This document shows positions 6,583 to 15,612 of a stretch of DNA of 16,405 bases, piece by piece (within the stretch, counting starts at the first letter, position 1; each line of letters starts with the position of its first letter). A program made the position numbers and the translations under genes. The DNA is from a virus. Taxonomy: Duplodnaviria; Heunggongvirae; Uroviricota; Caudoviricetes. The DNA is taken from IMG/VR virus record IMGVR_UViG_2563366929_000009. One strand, written 5' to 3'. The notes below the pieces were generated by a model, which was given only the letters and a program-made list of their open reading frames with translations, ran no database searches and was not told the DNA's origin.

Positions 6583-6793
6583 TTTTATATTGGCGAGGTG
6601 ACGGGAGTTAAGTAGAATTGCTGCGGGTGCTTGAGGCTATCTGCCTCAGGCATGAACACCAAAGGCAGATAGAGAAAAGCCCCAGTTAATATTACGCGTC
6701 CTGCAAGACGCTTAACATTAATCTGAGGCTCAATCTATGAACGGCAAATCTAGGTTAGCCTCTTACGTGCCGAAAGGCAAGGAGAAGCAGGCT

Positions 6794-6949
6794 ATGAAGC
6801 AGCAAAAGGCGATGTTAATCGCCCTGATCGTCATCTGTTTAACCGTCATAGTGACGGCACTGGTAACGAGGAAAGACCTCTGCGAGGTACGAATCCGAAC
6901 CGGCCAGACGGAGGTCGCTGTCTTCACAGTTTACGAACCTGAGGAGTAA
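6794..6949 (+). CDS. hokD: Hok/Gef-family type I toxin (HokD/RelF-like, 51 aa)
   Basis: MKQQKAMLIALIVICLTVIVTALVTRKDLCEVRIRTGQTEVAVFTVYEPEE is near-identical to my recollection of HokD. GGAGA Shine-Dalgarno 9 nt upstream. The in-frame upstream extension from 6737 (ORF-track 70-aa ORF) may be a mok-like leader ORF. Hairpin GGCGAGGG-agaaat-CCCTCGCC follows the stop, as at hok mRNA 3' ends. Confidence 0.85.
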   Translation: MKQQKAMLIALIVICLTVIVTALVTRKDLCEVRIRTGQTEVAVFTVYEPEE

Positions 6950-11319: not shown

Positions 11320-11395
11320 GGCCCTTTAGCTCAGTGGTGAGAGCGAGCGACTCATAATCGCCAGGTCGCTGGTTCAAATCCAGCAAGGGCCACCA
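11320..11395 (+). tRNA. ileZ: tRNA with CAT anticodon, most likely tRNA-Ile2 (lysidine-type, ileZ-like); tRNA-Met not excluded
   Basis: 76 nt with encoded CCA. Acceptor stem GGCCCTT/AAGGGCC, D-arm AGCTCAGTGGTGAGAGC, anticodon loop CTCATAA, T-arm GGTTCAAATCC. Resembles my recollection of E. coli ileX. Confidence 0.85.
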
Positions 11396-11402
11396 TCACA
11401 TA

Positions 11403-11479
11403 CCGCCATTAGCTCATCAGGAAAGAGCGCCAGCCTTCGAAGCTGGTTGCGCGGAGTTCGGGTCCCCGAAGGCGGTCCA
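11403..11479 (+). tRNA. tRNA-like sequence with UCG (Arg) anticodon; degenerate, possibly a pseudogene
   Basis: Cloverleaf can be drawn (anticodon loop CTTCGAA) but with A.A mismatch in the acceptor stem, a mismatch in the T-stem and an atypical T-loop TTCGGGT (G at the conserved A58 position). Confidence 0.45.
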
Positions 11480-11492
11480 TTATCTGTATCCT

Positions 11493-11569
11493 GCGTTGTT
11501 AGCTCAGCCGGACAGAGCAATTGCCTTCTAAGCAATCGGTCACTGGTTCGAATCCAGTACAACGCGCCA
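11493..11569 (+). tRNA. tRNA-Arg (anticodon UCU)
   Basis: 77 nt. Acceptor GCGTTGT/ACAACGC, discriminator G and CCA. Anticodon stem ATTGC/GCAAT with loop CTTCTAA. T-arm GGTTCGAATCC. Confidence 0.85.
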
Positions 11570-11614: not shown

Positions 11615-11828
11615 CTCACAATTCAGGCGGTTGACTGTTGTCTGGTTTGCGGGGAGTTTGTTAAAAGAAACTGGCATGGTGAATCCCCCTGTGCGGAGGG
11701 GCAATCAGCGAGTAGGTATATGGGATAATCGCGGATTCAGGTGCTGGTACTGAATTCACCGGGAGGCACCCGGCACCATGCAATGGCACATAGCGCCACT
11801 CTCCAGCCCCTCTCCGGAGGGGCTTTTC
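11615..11828 (+). repeat. Structured unit A: promoter-like element, hairpin, SD-ATG and terminator modules
   Basis: Shares conserved blocks with unit B: CTCACAATTCAG, GTTGAC, TTTGTTAAAA, GCATGGTGAATCCCCCTG.GCGGAGGGGC, GGTATA, TCACCGGGAGGCACCCGGCACCATG, AGCCCCTCTCCGGAGGGG+T-run. Blocks are separated by divergent spacers. Tiny ORFs at 11778..11903 (41 aa) and coupled 11903..12004 (33 aa). Confidence 0.6.
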
Positions 11829-12018
11829 TGTGCCGGATACATCACAGTTTCTGGAACCTTAGGTACTACAGTATCAGTCAGGGTGCTATATTTTCAGATG
11901 TGATGAAAGCCTGTCAGCAGGCAGGGCGTATCGGAAATGACCCAGTAGAGAAAACGTTGACTCAGATACCGGTGCTGAGTTACCGGGAAACCGGCATCAC
12001 ATGACCGCTATCCTTCCA

Positions 12019-12082: not shown

Positions 12083-12316
12083 CTCACAATTCAGTAAGTT
12101 GACAGTTGCCTGTCAGACTGGGCATTTGTTAAAAAAATTTCGCATGGTGAATCCCCCTGAGCGGAGGGGCGACTGGTGACGGTATAATCTCTGATTATCA
12201 AAACGAGAATGACGCGGGTTTAGTGGCACCGGGCTGAACTCACCGGGAGGCACCCGGCACCATGTGCATGATGATACAGATACGCGGCTTTAGCCCCTCT
12301 CCGGAGGGGTTTTCTT
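12083..12316 (+). repeat. Structured unit B (paralogue of unit A)
   Basis: Same conserved module set as unit A. Includes consensus -35 TTGACA (12099..12104) and consensus -10 TATAAT (12183..12188). Terminator CCCCTC-tccg-GAGGGG + TTTT at 12294..12316. Confidence 0.6.
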
Positions 12317-12322
12317 GTGGGC

Positions 12323-12772: not shown

Positions 12773-12976
12773 AAGACAGTCTGGCAGTGGGACTAAATGC
12801 ACTGACGCTGATGGATATTACCAAAAATGTAACGTATGGCGTTGAGATAGAAAGTCTGGCGCTGGAGATAAATGCACCGGCATCATCATAAAAAGTGAGC
12901 CAGTCAAATGGAAGGTATCGTTAAACTCACCGGTAGTGTCAGTGGGTCGTCTGAGACGCTTGCATGAGTTATCAGA

Positions 12977-13005
12977 GCCATCAGTAGTTAACTGGTGGCT
13001 TTTTT
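12977..13005 (+). terminator. Intrinsic terminator immediately upstream of the holin gene
   Basis: 9-bp stem GCCATCAGT / ACTGGTGGC (one G.U), loop AGTTA, followed by T6. Confidence 0.7.
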
Positions 13006-13040
13006 ATTGTTTTCAGCTTCCGGATAACGGGAGACGGGGT

Positions 13041-13256
13041 ATGGACCAGATGGAAAAAATCACAACAGGTGTGTCATACACCACGTCAGCGGTGGGAACG
13101 GGCTACTGGTTCCTGCAGTTGCTGGACAGGGTTTCCCCGTCTCAGTGGGCGGCAATAGGCGTGCTGGGGAGTCTGCTGTTTGGGCTGCTGACATATCTGA
13201 CTAACCTGTATTTCAAAATCAGAGAGGACCGTCGTAAGGCGGCACGGGGAGAGTAA
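13041..13256 (+). CDS. S: Class II holin (phage 21 S21-type pinholin), dual-start motif
   Basis: [71 protein letters not shown] is very similar to my recollection of S21. Met1 and Met4 give an antiholin/holin dual start. GGGAGA Shine-Dalgarno. The ORF-track upstream extension from 12936 is not supported. Confidence 0.9.
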
Positions 13257-13260
13257 TTCA

Positions 13261-13605
13261 ATGACTCAAAACTATGAACTGATTGTGAAAGGGATCCGCA
13301 ATTTTGAGAATAAAGTTACGGTAACTTTAGCATTACAGGACAAAGAACGCTTTGACGGTGAAATTTTTGACCTGGACATCTCGCTGGACCGTGTTGAAGG
13401 TGCTGCGCTGGAGTTTTATGAGGCAGCGGCCAGAAGGAGCATCAGACAGGTCTTCCTGGATGTCGCTGCCGGGTTATGTGAAGGGGATGAGCAGTCGCCG
13501 GAAAAGCGCCCCGTAATTTTAGAGGCGCAGAATGTATGGATAACCTACAAAGGAAAGCTACCGGGAAGGATTACTGGTTCCCTGAAGACTCCGCCGAAAT
13601 GGTAG
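13261..13605 (+). CDS. Hypothetical protein in the holin-endolysin interval (ydfR-like position)
   Basis: 114-aa ORF with GGGAGAG Shine-Dalgarno, starting 5 nt after the holin stop. Family not recognised from sequence. Confidence 0.65.
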   Translation: MTQNYELIVKGIRNFENKVTVTLALQDKERFDGEIFDLDISLDRVEGAALEFYEAAARRSIRQVFLDVAAGLCEGDEQSPEKRPVILEAQNVWITYKGKLPGRITGSLKTPPKW

Positions 13606-13843
13606 TTTTGCCAGCATAATTTTCTTCCAGCAATGCCGCCAGCCACTTGAAAGAATTTTGTTGTTCCTGGGACCATTTGGGGTTGCGTGATTCAAAATGA
13701 ATGGATGCCAGCGTTGGCAGCATTTGCTCCCTGGGAATTGATAAGGCCAGATGTGAAAATGCAACAGTGAGGGCATTTACATCATCCCGAAGCCTGGAAA
13801 TGCAGTCGAGCAACTCCTGTAGAGAAATGGTGCTATTGTCCAT
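13571..13843 (-). CDS. Candidate antisense-oriented gene (90 aa) inside the lysis cassette
   Basis: Minus-strand ORF with good AGAGGA Shine-Dalgarno 6 nt before ATG. Its 3' end overlaps the 3' end of the 13261..13605 ORF by 35 bp (convergent). No family recognised. Confidence 0.4.
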   Translation of the reverse strand: MDNSTISLQELLDCISRLRDDVNALTVAFSHLALSIPREQMLPTLASIHFESRNPKWSQEQQNSFKWLAALLEENYAGKTTISAESSGNQ

Positions 13844-13948: not shown

Positions 13949-14482
13949 ATGAACGCAAAAATCAAATACGGCCTGTCAGCTGCAGTTCTGGCGCTGATTG
14001 GAGCAGGCGCATCAGCTCCTCAGATACTTGACCAGTTTCTGGATGAAAAAGAGGGTAACCACACTACGGCATACCGCGATGGTTCCGGCAACTGGACCAT
14101 CTGTCGGGGGGCCACGATGGTGGATGGAAAACCCGTTTTTCCCGGTATGAAACTGTCGAAGGAAAAATGCGACCAGGTCAACGCCATTGAGCGTGATAAG
14201 GCGCTGGCATGGGTGGAGAAAAACATCAAAGTGCCATTGAGCGAACCCCAGAAAGCGGGGATCGCGTCATTCTGTCCGTACAACATTGGTCCCGGTAAGT
14301 GTTTCCCGTCGACGTTTTATAAACGAATTAATGCAGGTGATCGCAGGGGAGCGTGTGAGGCGATTCGCTGGTGGATTAAGGACGGTGGCAGAGACTGCCG
14401 TATTCGTTCAAACAACTGCTACGGTCAGGTATCCCGTCGTGACCAGGAGAGCGCGCTGGCGTGCTGGGGTATCGACAGATAA
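13949..14482 (+). CDS. R: SAR endolysin (phage 21 R21-type lysozyme)
   Basis: 177 aa. N-terminal signal-anchor-release segment (LSAAVLALIGAGASAP) and lysozyme catalytic region (..DEKEGNHTTAYRDGSGNWTICRG..). Confidence 0.9.
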   Translation: MNAKIKYGLSAAVLALIGAGASAPQILDQFLDEKEGNHTTAYRDGSGNWTICRGATMVDGKPVFPGMKLSKEKCDQVNAIERDKALAWVEKNIKVPLSEPQKAGIASFCPYNIGPGKCFPSTFYKRINAGDRRGACEAIRWWIKDGGRDCRIRSNNCYGQVSRRDQESALACWGIDR

Positions 14483-14576
14483 GCAGAATATTTTGCTGAA
14501 AAATAAGGCATGGCCACGCGGGCGGATAACATGAAATCCTGCGAAGTGGCGAAACGTAAGTGAATAAAAGTAAAAA

Positions 14577-14606
14577 CCCCGTTTGTTGGCACCAAGCGGG
14601 GTTTTG
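14577..14606 (+). terminator. Intrinsic terminator between endolysin and Rz
   Basis: 9-bp stem CCCCGTTTG / CAAGCGGGG (one G.U), 7-nt loop, then TTTT. Preceded by AAAA, so it may act bidirectionally. Confidence 0.65.
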
Positions 14607-14680
14607 TGTTTCCTGACTCCGGAAAAGTCAAAGGAGAAAGTGTGTTTGATTTTAGCAAACTGATTCGGGAGATTCGAGTG

Positions 14681-14779
14681 ATGGCTGAAAAATTATCCAC
14701 CTGGAAGTTCATTCTTATCTGGCTGGTGTTTGTGATTATGGCCTCTGGTTATTTCATCGGTCAGATACGCTGGTGGTGA
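14681..14779 (+). CDS. Candidate small membrane peptide (32 aa; alternative GTG start at 14642 gives 45 aa)
   Basis: [32 protein letters not shown] has a single hydrophobic helix. AGGAG at 14633 and GGGAG at 14667 could each serve as Shine-Dalgarno. Stop TGA is 1 nt before the Rz ATG. Below the ORF-track size cutoff. Confidence 0.35.
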
Positions 14780-14780
14780 A

Positions 14781-15245
14781 ATGAACCGCGTACTGTGCGT
14801 GGTCATCATTGCCCTGCTGGTGGCCTGTGGTGCGCTTAGTCTGGGGCTGAATCATTACCGTGATAACGCCATTACCTACAAAGCCCAGCGCGACAAAAAT
14901 GTCAGAGAACTGAAGCTGGCGAACGCGGCAATTACTGACATGCAGATGCGTCAGCGTGATGTTGCTGCGCTCGATGCAAAATACACGAAGGAGTTAGCTG
15001 ATGCGAAAGCTGAAAATGATGCTCTGCGTGATGATGTTGCCGCTGGTCGTCGTCGGTTGCACATCAAAGCAGTCTGTCAGTCAGTGCGTGAAGCCACCAC
15101 CGCCTCCGGCGTGGATAATGCAGCCTCCCCCCGACTGGCAGACACCGCTGAACGGGATTATTTCACCCTCAGAGCGCGACTGATAATAATGCAAAAACAA
15201 CTTGAAGGGGCACAGCTATACATTCGAGAGCAATGCCTCAGATAA
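14781..15245 (+). CDS. Rz: Rz i-spanin (lambda-type)
   Basis: 154 aa, near-identical over most of its length to my recollection of lambda Rz (..[107 protein letters not shown]..). Confidence 0.88.
15001..15183 (+). CDS. Rz1: Rz1 o-spanin lipoprotein (embedded in Rz, +1 frame)
   Basis: 60 aa. Lipobox-like VVGC after a hydrophobic signal, proline-rich mature part ([16 protein letters not shown]). Fully embedded in Rz as in lambda. Confidence 0.8.
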
Positions 15246-15612
15246 AAACCGGCCAAGGATAATCCGCTGAAGATTCGCCGGTGGCTAAAGTGTGCCAAGA
15301 GTTCAATTTACGCAATTACTCCTGTCGATGCTATGTACCGTCTTTGTGAAGTCAATGGATACCTGATTTATTTCTGTGCGCTGTATCGTCGCTGTACTCT
15401 TGCATTAATTATGACTGTAGCCTGACGGGGAACTCCTTCTGCACAAGTGTGGGGGAATAATCAAAAACGATGCACACCGGGGTTACCGGGTACACATATT
15501 TCATCATGCCAGCGAGTCCGGTTCTGGCACGGAAGAAACCGGACGTTATGATTTAGTGCGGAAATATTTGTGTAGTGTTCTGAATGTTCTCAGTAAAGAG
15601 TAATGAATTATC

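Follow-up and report, generated by a model that had tools for sequence, protein, structure and literature searches.

A mobile cassette of terminator, structured leader and small membrane-protein gene in lambdoid late operons, with a candidate antisense RNA

In the type I toxin–antitoxin pairs SymE/SymR and Ibs/Sib, and more loosely in Hok/Sok, a cis-antisense RNA lies over the ribosome-binding site of the toxin, which normally has its own promoter. In phage P22, the sar RNA, an antisense RNA of ∼70 nucleotides (nt), is complementary to the ribosome-binding site of ant, a gene that must stay silent in the lysogen. Classic morons, as described in the passages that cite Juhala et al. 2000 (PMC4104026, PMC2629481), have their own promoter upstream and a terminator downstream and are expressed from the prophage. 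The prophage anti-sRNAs and EcOnc small RNAs (sRNAs) of Escherichia coli O157 are short (51–60 nt), dominated by a terminator and antisense within the Q-dependent late region (Tree et al. 2014, PMC4104026). Here these systems are compared with the 298-nt spacer (14483–14780) between the endolysin gene R and the i-spanin gene Rz in the IMG/VR virus record IMGVR_UViG_2563366929_000009, a lambdoid E. coli prophage late region; the whole stretch of 16,405 nt is referred to as the window.

The spacer holds an intrinsic terminator, a leader that sequesters the Shine–Dalgarno (SD) sequence and a small open reading frame (ORF). As judged by comparison of homologous copies, these three parts are one mobile cassette of ∼215 nt, with an optional 80-nt segment on its left, and the ORF is, to judge from its pattern of substitution, a real conserved gene under purifying selection across Enterobacterales. 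We regard these two conclusions, taken together, as close to certain. Because a small membrane peptide is combined with a putative cis-antisense RNA over its ribosome-binding site, the layout resembles that of a type I pair, and on its predicted parts the most fitting description of the cassette is a variant, situated within phage late operons, of small membrane-peptide cassettes under antisense control. Our best explanation, to which we give a probability of roughly 0.55, is that the mobile cassette is a type I toxin–antitoxin-like module that would be read only by Q-antiterminated late transcription. The features of the spacer are as follows (aa, amino acids).

14483–14562, plus strand: segment 1, conserved and non-coding, directly after the endolysin stop; optional and outside the mobile core
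14563–14612, both strands: predicted bidirectional intrinsic terminator (A-run 14563–14576, hairpin 14573–14605, T-run 14602–14611)
14609–14641, plus strand: leader with SD-sequestering hairpin (the T-run tail and CTCC pair with GGAG at 14633–14636 and the AGAAA region)
14642–14779, plus strand: small gene with GTG start and SD sequence, encoding a predicted 45-aa tail-anchored single-pass membrane protein
14667–14683, plus strand: possible internal start (GGGAG at 14667–14671, 9 nt, then the ATG of codon 14 at 14681), giving a 32-aa product
14649–14677, minus strand: candidate antisense promoter (−35 TCGAAT at 14677–14672, 17-nt spacer, TG at 14657–14656, −10 TAAAAT at 14654–14649)
14563–14643, minus strand: putative cis-antisense RNA of ∼78 nt, from the geometry of promoter and terminator

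The resemblance to type I systems extends to several properties. The cassette ORF is shorter than 60 aa with one predicted hydrophobic helix, it resides in prophages, and it occurs in tandem copies at some loci. The predicted antisense RNA of ∼75–80 nt would start from a promoter a few codons inside the ORF, cover the SD sequence and start codon and end at an intrinsic terminator, and a hok/sok-type locus is present in the same window. In contrast to type I toxins, the cassette peptide gene has no promoter of its own and lies behind a terminator, with 36 nt from the terminator end to the start codon. No plus-strand promoter was found inside or around the terminator, and the best score in the spacer (7.5) is located inside the ORF. 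Since there is no plus-strand promoter between the terminator and the ORF, the peptide would be made only from read-through transcripts. The transmembrane helix is C-terminal (tail-anchored) rather than N-terminal, and the peptide has no match in Pfam, NCBIfam or PADLOC scans and no sequence similarity to the known toxin families there.

With P22 sar/ant the cassette shares a small phage-encoded antisense RNA that would start just inside or beside its target gene and block the ribosome-binding site. The sar/ant genes, however, belong to the immI locus and are unrelated in sequence, and the target of sar is a large soluble antirepressor, whereas the target here would be a 45-aa membrane peptide inside a late operon. 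Like a moron, the cassette is inserted between conserved late genes, is present or absent among relatives and occurs in unrelated slots. Unlike a classic moron, it has its terminator upstream and no promoter on the coding strand; only the putative minus-strand RNA would have the promoter–gene–terminator form. The anti-sRNAs and EcOnc sRNAs resemble the predicted RNA in being short, terminator-dominated and antisense in a lambdoid late region, but they lie downstream of PR′ or just after Rz (as do EcOnc11 and EcOnc12 in the Sakai prophages; Tree et al. 2014, PMC4104026), with none in the R–Rz spacer, and they are Hfq-bound and trans-acting.

A small gene that moves with a structured RNA

An earlier reading made from the letters alone (the sequence-only reading) had described a spacer of ∼300 bp with a terminator and a hydrophobic ORF of 32–45 codons stopping 1 nt from Rz, and all of this was borne out. 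The endolysin gene ends at 14482 and Rz begins at 14781. The longest frame of the small ORF, 14606–14779 (57 aa), begins inside the T-run of the terminator; the supported start is the GTG at 14642, with GGAG 5 nt upstream, which gives 45 aa, and a start at the ATG at 14681 gives 32 aa. The stop codon TGA (14777–14779) is followed by one base and then by the Rz ATG at 14781, and the last codons together with the stop (TGGTGGTGA) form an SD-like site for Rz.

The 45-aa product matches the family phrog_6632 over its full length (E 1.2e-29; residues 1–45 on profile positions 1–45 of 45). The same ORF is annotated as WP_000459345.1 by PGAP in some genomes and as CAH23245.1 in phage CP-1639; it is uncalled in H-19B and in most Shiga toxin (Stx) phage records, and is usually unannotated or hypothetical. 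A word-indexed search gave 35 close homologues and an exhaustive search gave 41 cluster representatives among 1.84 billion, all of ∼45–50 aa. At the DNA level, 13–15 diverged copies from ∼10 enterobacterial genera all keep the GTG start, the SD sequence and the 45-codon frame, with the GTG invariant in 15 copies. Across the ORF, the level of non-synonymous difference (pN) was 0.14–0.32 and that of synonymous difference (pS) was 0.40–0.81, the values for codons 22–43 being 0.32 and 0.81, respectively. In both halves of the ORF pN was below pS, and synonymous change was saturated with far fewer replacements.

Distant homologues (36–44% identity) share the N-terminal motif SK.I.E.R.M.E+L..W+F, followed by a hydrophobic helix. 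Residues 23–40 of the peptide are hydrophobic, and AlphaFold2 predicts one continuous helix over residues 4–44 with a confidence score (pLDDT) of 86.7. A tail-anchored topology with the N-terminus inside is suggested by the short tail, QIRWW, and by the charge of the N-terminal half. A search of the literature on the peptide sequence, lysis-cassette small ORFs, type I toxin–antitoxin systems and antisense transcripts found nothing on this element. The GGGAG, the third positions of codons 9 and 10 and the ATG of codon 14 are invariant in the 15 copies, and M14 is nearly invariant in the distant homologues. As a hypothesis only, initiation at ATG14 would give a 32-aa product without the amphipathic N-terminus, an arrangement that recalls the dual-start motifs of holins.

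The terminator consists of a 13-pair stem and a 7-nt loop, with the core CCCCGTTTG/CAAGCGGGG (14577–14601) followed by TTTTGTGTTT. As the A-run lies 5′ of the hairpin, the element also reads as a terminator on the minus strand, and both the A-run and the T-run are conserved. On either strand a GC-rich stem with a short loop is followed by a U-run, and the element is predicted to be a bidirectional intrinsic terminator. Its predicted energy is −18.9 kcal/mol on the plus strand and −15.6 kcal/mol on the minus strand; over 20 homologues the mean energies of the two strands were equal (−23.7 versus −23.8 kcal/mol). A simple hairpin scan was not above chance (3 found against 3.0 expected in shuffles). 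The hairpin is, however, conserved with compensatory changes in 17–24 homologous copies: in 24 copies, the 13 pairs were 95.8% paired and 7 of them had changed on both sides.

The leader hairpin kept the same topology in most of 19 copies when each sequence was folded separately, at about −7 kcal/mol. In a model-based alignment, its outer stem was 90.6% paired and its inner stem 92.9%, with three pairs in each changed on both sides; the compensatory variants are CCTTG/CAAGG, CTCC/GGAG, CCTAT/ATAGG and CGTTA/TAACG. For terminator and leader together in 24 copies, 94.2% of cells were paired; the figure for shuffles was 82.6%, and for slid partners it did not exceed 61%. Changes on both sides were seen in 13 of the 22 pairs, and none of 500 shuffles reached any of the five measures. 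The three helices were also compatible with the minus strand (92%, 87% and 98% paired), and a wobble-pair test for the strand preference of the hairpins gave no clear preference. A covariance model of terminator and leader, built from 12 copies, matched ahead of every cassette and ahead of further small ORFs in four of the loci compared (L013, L028, L116 and L117); in lambda, Qin and the ant-type Sakai prophages it found nothing better than E 0.1. The spacer has no Rfam match at the gathering threshold (best sub-threshold hit 24.7 bits against a cutoff of 47), and at seven other cassette-bearing loci there was no Rfam match at the cassette at either the gathering or a permissive threshold. The leader and terminator are a conserved structured RNA motif without an Rfam family.

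The spacer as a whole is a mosaic of three parts, the first ∼90 nt, the terminator with the leader, and the ORF body, each distributed differently among phages. Behind R, the first ∼86–95 nt are kept at 82–90% identity in ∼275 Stx-phage records, after which the sequences diverge into the ant gene. Segment 1 is present in the Salmonella and Providencia copies and absent from Citrobacter braakii, E. fergusonii and the baseplate contexts; no good promoter was found in it, and its fold is modest (z −2.1). The sequence-only reading had seen in the spacer a mosaic recombination joint. The mosaic part of this stands, but the spacer is more than a joint, as the terminator, leader and ORF move as a unit. 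That reading had also looked within the spacer for the breakpoint of homology to lambda, which is found instead inside the 5′ end of Rz: the Rz protein is of the lambda type, as had been supposed, at 86% identity to lambda Rz, with the differences confined to the first ∼24 residues. In lambda itself, R and Rz do abut, as that reading had it, with a 4-nt overlap.

The spacer is found wholly or partly in 2005 of 5426 complete E. coli genomes and near full-length in 871, with up to seven places per genome matching it in part or in full. It is 100% identical in UTI89, APEC O1, S88, IHE3034 and ATCC 11775, and a spacer of identical type is present in the sequenced phages H-19B, SPN3UB and FSL SP-016 and in many Stx1a/Stx2c phages. 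The terminator–leader–ORF block occurs in Escherichia, Salmonella, Citrobacter, Yersinia, Trabulsiella, Sodalis, Brenneria, Pantoea, Symbiopectobacterium and Providencia, and the terminator and leader always lie 5′ of the small ORF whatever gene precedes. Four endolysin types are found ahead of the cassette (two kinds of PF00959 lysozyme, a GH19 endolysin and a 138-aa endolysin-like protein). The spanin genes behind it, which usually begin 1 nt past its stop, are of three families (PF03245 Rz, a DUF2514 spanin and a 93-aa i-spanin). The cassette also lies between the baseplate V and W genes (Rac-SA53, Yersinia similis and Pantoea), after a tail fibre gene (Sodalis), after the gene for a 777-aa virion protein (Brenneria and Symbiopectobacterium), after a tail K gene (L117) and next to a PrlF/YhaV pair. 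In Dryocola (L028), a shortened copy of the ORF occupies the V–W slot and the terminator–leader motif stands ahead of another small ORF upstream. Its occurrence in baseplate and tail slots makes the cassette moron-like rather than lysis-specific. It is absent from lambda and from K-12 Qin, in both of which R overlaps Rz (rrrQ/rzpQ in Qin), so the small-protein and sRNA catalogues of K-12 cannot help.

Tandem terminator–leader–ORF units are present at three loci: two units in E. fergusonii (L013, 3683–4138), three in a metagenomic phage contig (L116, 1933–2440 onward) and two in L117 (915–2150). The ORF bodies of the tandem copies differ, and most end in (K/R)WW-stop. The tandem copies in L013 and L116 fit the habit of type I systems. 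One 71% identical ‘homologue’ (P0025) was rejected as coming from an assembly with indels.

Other small membrane-protein genes occupy the same position before Rz. Sakai Sp4 and PhiR12_4 have the same terminator and leader followed by a different ORF body, of the RKYKR/MEKYKR type and with one transmembrane helix, and Sp4 additionally shares the IRWW-stop/Rz junction. Stx phages of the 933W/Sakai type carry ant and an unrelated 43–48-aa transmembrane ORF directly before Rz (ECs_5741, ECs_5713 and ECs_1966), at these loci:

L004, 3350–3485: ant-type transmembrane ORF, slot before Rz
L109, 4749–4895, minus strand: ant-type transmembrane ORF, slot before Rz
L111, 6887–7033: ant-type transmembrane ORF, slot before Rz

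No hit of the terminator/leader model was found in the ant-type Sakai spacers of L004 and L109–L111. The ORFs of both the Sp4/PhiR12_4 and the ant type resemble the cassette ORF in lying directly before Rz, in their similar size and in having one transmembrane helix, but their protein sequences are unrelated to that of the cassette peptide. The slot upstream of the i-spanin gene repeatedly hosts small membrane-protein genes.

Synonymous constraint and a candidate promoter on the minus strand

There was a marked asymmetry in synonymous variation along the small gene. Third-position entropy was near zero at codons 3, 4, 5, 9, 10, 12 and 17 and 0.35 at codons 6 and 18, and it was 0.9–2.0 from codon 22 on. 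Likewise, pS was 0.40 in codons 2–21 versus 0.81 in codons 22–43, being lower in the first part in 77 of 78 pairs. The minima were at codons 2–5 (0.16) and codons 10–13 (0.23), with a rise to 0.54 between them. Plus-strand mRNA structure was rejected as the source of this constraint, the consensus energy being −0.4 kcal/mol.

The two minima coincide with the −10 and −35 hexamers of the candidate promoter on the opposite strand, for which the minus-strand consensus is TCG(A/C)A(T/A), 17 nt, TG-C-TAA(A/T)AT. The extended −10, TGCTAAAAT (14657–14649), lies 4 nt from the start codon and within codons 3–6, and TTTGCTAA(A/T)ATC is invariant on the minus strand in 14 copies. A crude sigma-70 matrix places the candidate 8th among the 32,748 positions of the window, far ahead of any other site in the spacer. 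Where the DNA is richer in GC, distant homologues retain TGCTAAGAT, TGCTAATGT or TGCTAATAT, and one copy with a Ser to Arg change still keeps TAAAAT. Moreover, among the eight small-ORF types that have the leader in common, every one shows a TAnnnT hexamer with a score of 6.5 or more at a distance of 1–7 nt from the complement of the start codon; such a hexamer is present in 1.9% of random windows and at 3.3% of the 5′ ends of 122 long ORFs. The N-termini of ORFs with this common −10-like hexamer include MEKYKR, MKESSNK, MPFKNSTK and MNDRRFTF. A first candidate for an antisense promoter, at 14764–14735 (CTGACC-18-CATAAT), was rejected: its −10 is not conserved in Salmonella, where the synonymous sites are free.

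The predicted RNA would have its 5′ end at ∼14641–14643 and its 3′ end near 14563, crossing the start codon, the SD sequence and the leader hairpin. It is predicted to fold as a 5′ hairpin followed by the terminator hairpin (−23.2 kcal/mol, z −3.0). From the conservation of the promoter-like sites, we think it somewhat probable that an antisense RNA is made from this minus-strand promoter; by its position, such an RNA would be expected to repress translation of the peptide.

Surrounding genes and related loci

The lysis genes on either side of the spacer are as follows.

13044–13256, plus strand: P21-type pinholin, lysis cassette
13261–13605, plus strand: DUF1327/YdfR ORF, between holin and endolysin
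13571–13843, minus strand: phrog_2411 ORF, 90 aa, converging, between holin and endolysin
13949–14482, plus strand: endolysin R, 177 aa, with a hydrophobic N-terminal stretch (PF00959, E 4e-24)
14781–15245, plus strand: Rz, the i-spanin (PF03245, E 1.4e-52)
15001–15183, plus strand: Rz1, the o-spanin, embedded in Rz (PF06085, E 5e-20)

The endolysin is a PF00959 lysozyme paired with a P21-type holin and is unrelated to lambda R. It is closest to the 177-aa Stx-phage/RrrQ type, with 92–96% identity to Stx-phage R proteins, and its orthologue is named rrrQ by PGAP. The DUF1327/YdfR and phrog_2411 ORFs, on opposite strands, overlap by 35 nt and are additional insertions in the lysis cassette. The pinholin has a dual start (ATG 13042/13051, M-D-Q-M). 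A terminator-like hairpin with a long T-run lies at 12974–13012 on the plus strand, ∼30 nt upstream of the pinholin start, and has the same geometry as the spacer, a terminator just before a late gene whose product is, or in the spacer may be, membrane-toxic. Around the Rz start, a stable fold is predicted over 14715–14830 (−44 kcal/mol, z −3.5), in which the Rz SD sequence and AUG pair with Rz codons 1–14 (14768–14822, plus strand). The Rz start 1 nt after the stop, the SD-like TGGTGGTGA and this predicted fold make translational coupling of Rz to the peptide plausible.

Elsewhere in the window, 6625–6799 on the plus strand matches the Rfam sok antitoxin family with 113 bits, which indicates, by sequence similarity, a hok/sok-type type I toxin–antitoxin locus in the early/nin region of the prophage. 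Just upstream of it, at 6590 on the plus strand, is a strong promoter-like site, ranked second by the crude sigma-70 matrix. Downstream of the Q region are three tRNA genes and, in two copies, an sRNA of the STnc100 family (11320–11566, 11645–11835 and 12113–12322, plus strand), an arrangement that recurs in Sakai Sp4 (L112) and in a Salmonella prophage (L009). At 15371–15492 there is 81% identity to the stretch directly after Rz in Sakai prophage Sp10, where the antisense strand encodes EcOnc11, a candidate sRNA crosslinked to Hfq (Tree et al. 2014, Table S2, PMC4104026). In Salmonella phage FSL SP-016 (L006, 2393–2502), a hydrophobic ORF of ∼36 aa (MSKRDVSALCFLMAAAVAISGNDGWGWLIFAGIIIL) precedes the cassette and begins just within the endolysin gene, at its 3′ end. 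Rfam sRNA-Xcc1 matches adjoin ant/Bro-N genes downstream of the cassette in two unrelated prophages (L005, 3633–3716 and L117, 3130–3218, both minus strand).

Mechanism and alternative readings

Read-through late transcripts in a lambdoid late operon come from Q-modified RNA polymerase, which passes terminators. If the cassette is a type I-like module, its terminator would halt stray rightward transcripts in the lysogen, and any message that read through would be poorly translated, with its SD sequence sequestered and GTG as its start codon, and would additionally be masked by the antisense RNA. On induction, Q-modified, terminator-resistant polymerase would flood the region, its transcripts would outnumber the antisense RNA, and the peptide would be made. 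The peptide would span the inner membrane with its C-terminal helix and have its amphipathic N-terminal helix in the cytoplasm. Rz would be translated right behind it, with the Rz SD sequence within the last codons of the peptide gene. The peptide may be membrane-toxic or otherwise membrane-active; toxin-like activity proper is conceivable, with the odds slightly against it. The sequence-only reading had doubted the expression of Rz and Rz1 behind the terminator, a worry that lapses given read-through by Q-modified polymerase and the presence of the same spacer in sequenced phages, e.g. H-19B.

Several observations weigh against this explanation. The lack of an own promoter for the peptide gene is unlike the usual type I toxin, and in the baseplate contexts there is no obvious Q-type antitermination, so that an efficient terminator there would be polar on the downstream genes. 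The −35 hexamer of the candidate promoter is weak (3 of 6 positions) and is not conserved in distant members, and the nominal p of ∼1e-12 for the shared −10-like hexamer overstates independence because some of the ORF types may be distant homologues. The N-terminal residues are conserved as protein, and the internal SD sequence and ATG14 fall within the constrained codons, so that some of the synonymous constraint may arise from something other than a promoter. The structure-aware alignment behind the covariation counts was fitted to its own model; an independent MAFFT/RNAalifold run supports the terminator helix. Finally, there is a negative result for Hfq, which is weak evidence because cis-antisense RNAs are often Hfq-independent. 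The table of Hfq crosslinking and cDNA analysis (CRAC) from O157 Sakai has no orphan peak in the Sp4 R–Rz spacer (1184727–1184948), in a check that covered Sp4, Sp6, Sp10 and Sp15, three with the ant-type spacer and Sp4 with another ORF behind the terminator and leader (Tree et al. 2014, PMC4104026).

Some of these points would suit an ordinary accessory membrane protein, expressed late and without any antisense RNA, in which the only role of the terminator and SD hairpin would be to insulate the gene and hold its dose down. Such a protein would account equally well for the gene, the hairpins and the missing promoter, and the conserved synonymous sites would be signals for translation, namely a region of initiation rich in AU and a second start, ATG14, preceded by GGGAG. 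The invariant GGGAG 9 nt ahead of an invariant ATG14, the conservation of the N-terminal motif as protein and the absence of a recorded Hfq-bound RNA from the related Sakai Sp4 spacer are all in keeping with this, and the terminator ∼30 nt before the holin start implies that terminators within this late operon need no antisense partner. Left unexplained would be the invariant AGC, GAT and TTT at codons 3–5, the retention of TAAAAT despite an amino-acid change, the opposite-strand TAnnnT at the same distance in unrelated ORF N-termini, and the conserved A-run upstream of the hairpin, which is the U-tail of the minus strand; we consider an accessory protein of this kind rather unlikely. The peptide might instead be a dedicated component of the lysis cassette, for example a regulator of spanin, of holin or of signal-anchor-release (SAR)-type endolysin release. 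In E. coli, Salmonella and Citrobacter it is almost always encoded directly before the i-spanin gene and 1 nt from its start, whichever of the three spanin families and four endolysin types is present; its last codons contain the Rz ribosome-binding site, which is also part of a stable fold, and other phages place a different 43–48-aa transmembrane ORF (ECs_5741, ECs_5713) in the same slot. Such a role is nevertheless improbable, as the cassette also lies in the baseplate and tail slots and beside the PrlF/YhaV pair, as lambda, K-12 Qin and other phages lyse without it, and as the peptide is neither confined to lysis loci nor, in the Pfam, NCBIfam and PADLOC scans, homologous to a characterised regulator.

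A plus-strand RNA from the endolysin 3′ untranslated region, made up of segment 1 and the terminator (∼125 nt), would draw on the conservation of segment 1 behind R in hundreds of Stx phages and on its modest fold, with the terminator defining the 3′ end. That this RNA is the functional product is very improbable: Sakai-type phages keep segment 1 without the terminator, the terminator travels with the ORF and not with R, the spacer has no Rfam hit and late transcription is terminator-resistant. We give hardly any weight to the view that the spacer is a recombination scar and the ORF a chance frame or, as the sequence-only reading had put it, a fossil of the recombined gene. The absence of the cassette from lambda and K-12 Qin and the many annotations in which the ORF is uncalled would fit. 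A scar would not, however, keep a 45-codon frame with invariant GTG and SD sequence in at least ten genera under saturated synonymous change and far fewer replacements (pN well below pS), nor would it constitute a full-length PHROG family, move with the terminator and be flanked by an RNA structure that covaries.

At long odds, the cassette could act at the last step of lysis as a timer and immunity device that is gated by RNA. The ∼78-nt antisense RNA would then be made constantly by a resident prophage and would silence the peptide. As Rz starts 1 nt after the peptide stop and a stable fold encloses its ribosome-binding site, the same RNA would keep spanins from being made until Q-driven transcripts exceeded the RNA pool. 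Since the leaders are near-identical between cassettes, the RNA could also, in trans, delay the lysis of other phages, whether co-resident or superinfecting.

The cassette is common, and H-19B and many Stx1a/Stx2c phages carry it in their lysis regions. If the type I toxin–antitoxin-like explanation is true, a family of antisense-controlled membrane peptides would be added to the late operon of Shiga toxin phages, which governs toxin release, and a conserved structured RNA motif outside Rfam would be gained. With no promoter for its peptide, the cassette would also show how a phage can silence a toxic late gene through three stacked layers: a terminator, a masked ribosome-binding site and an antisense RNA.

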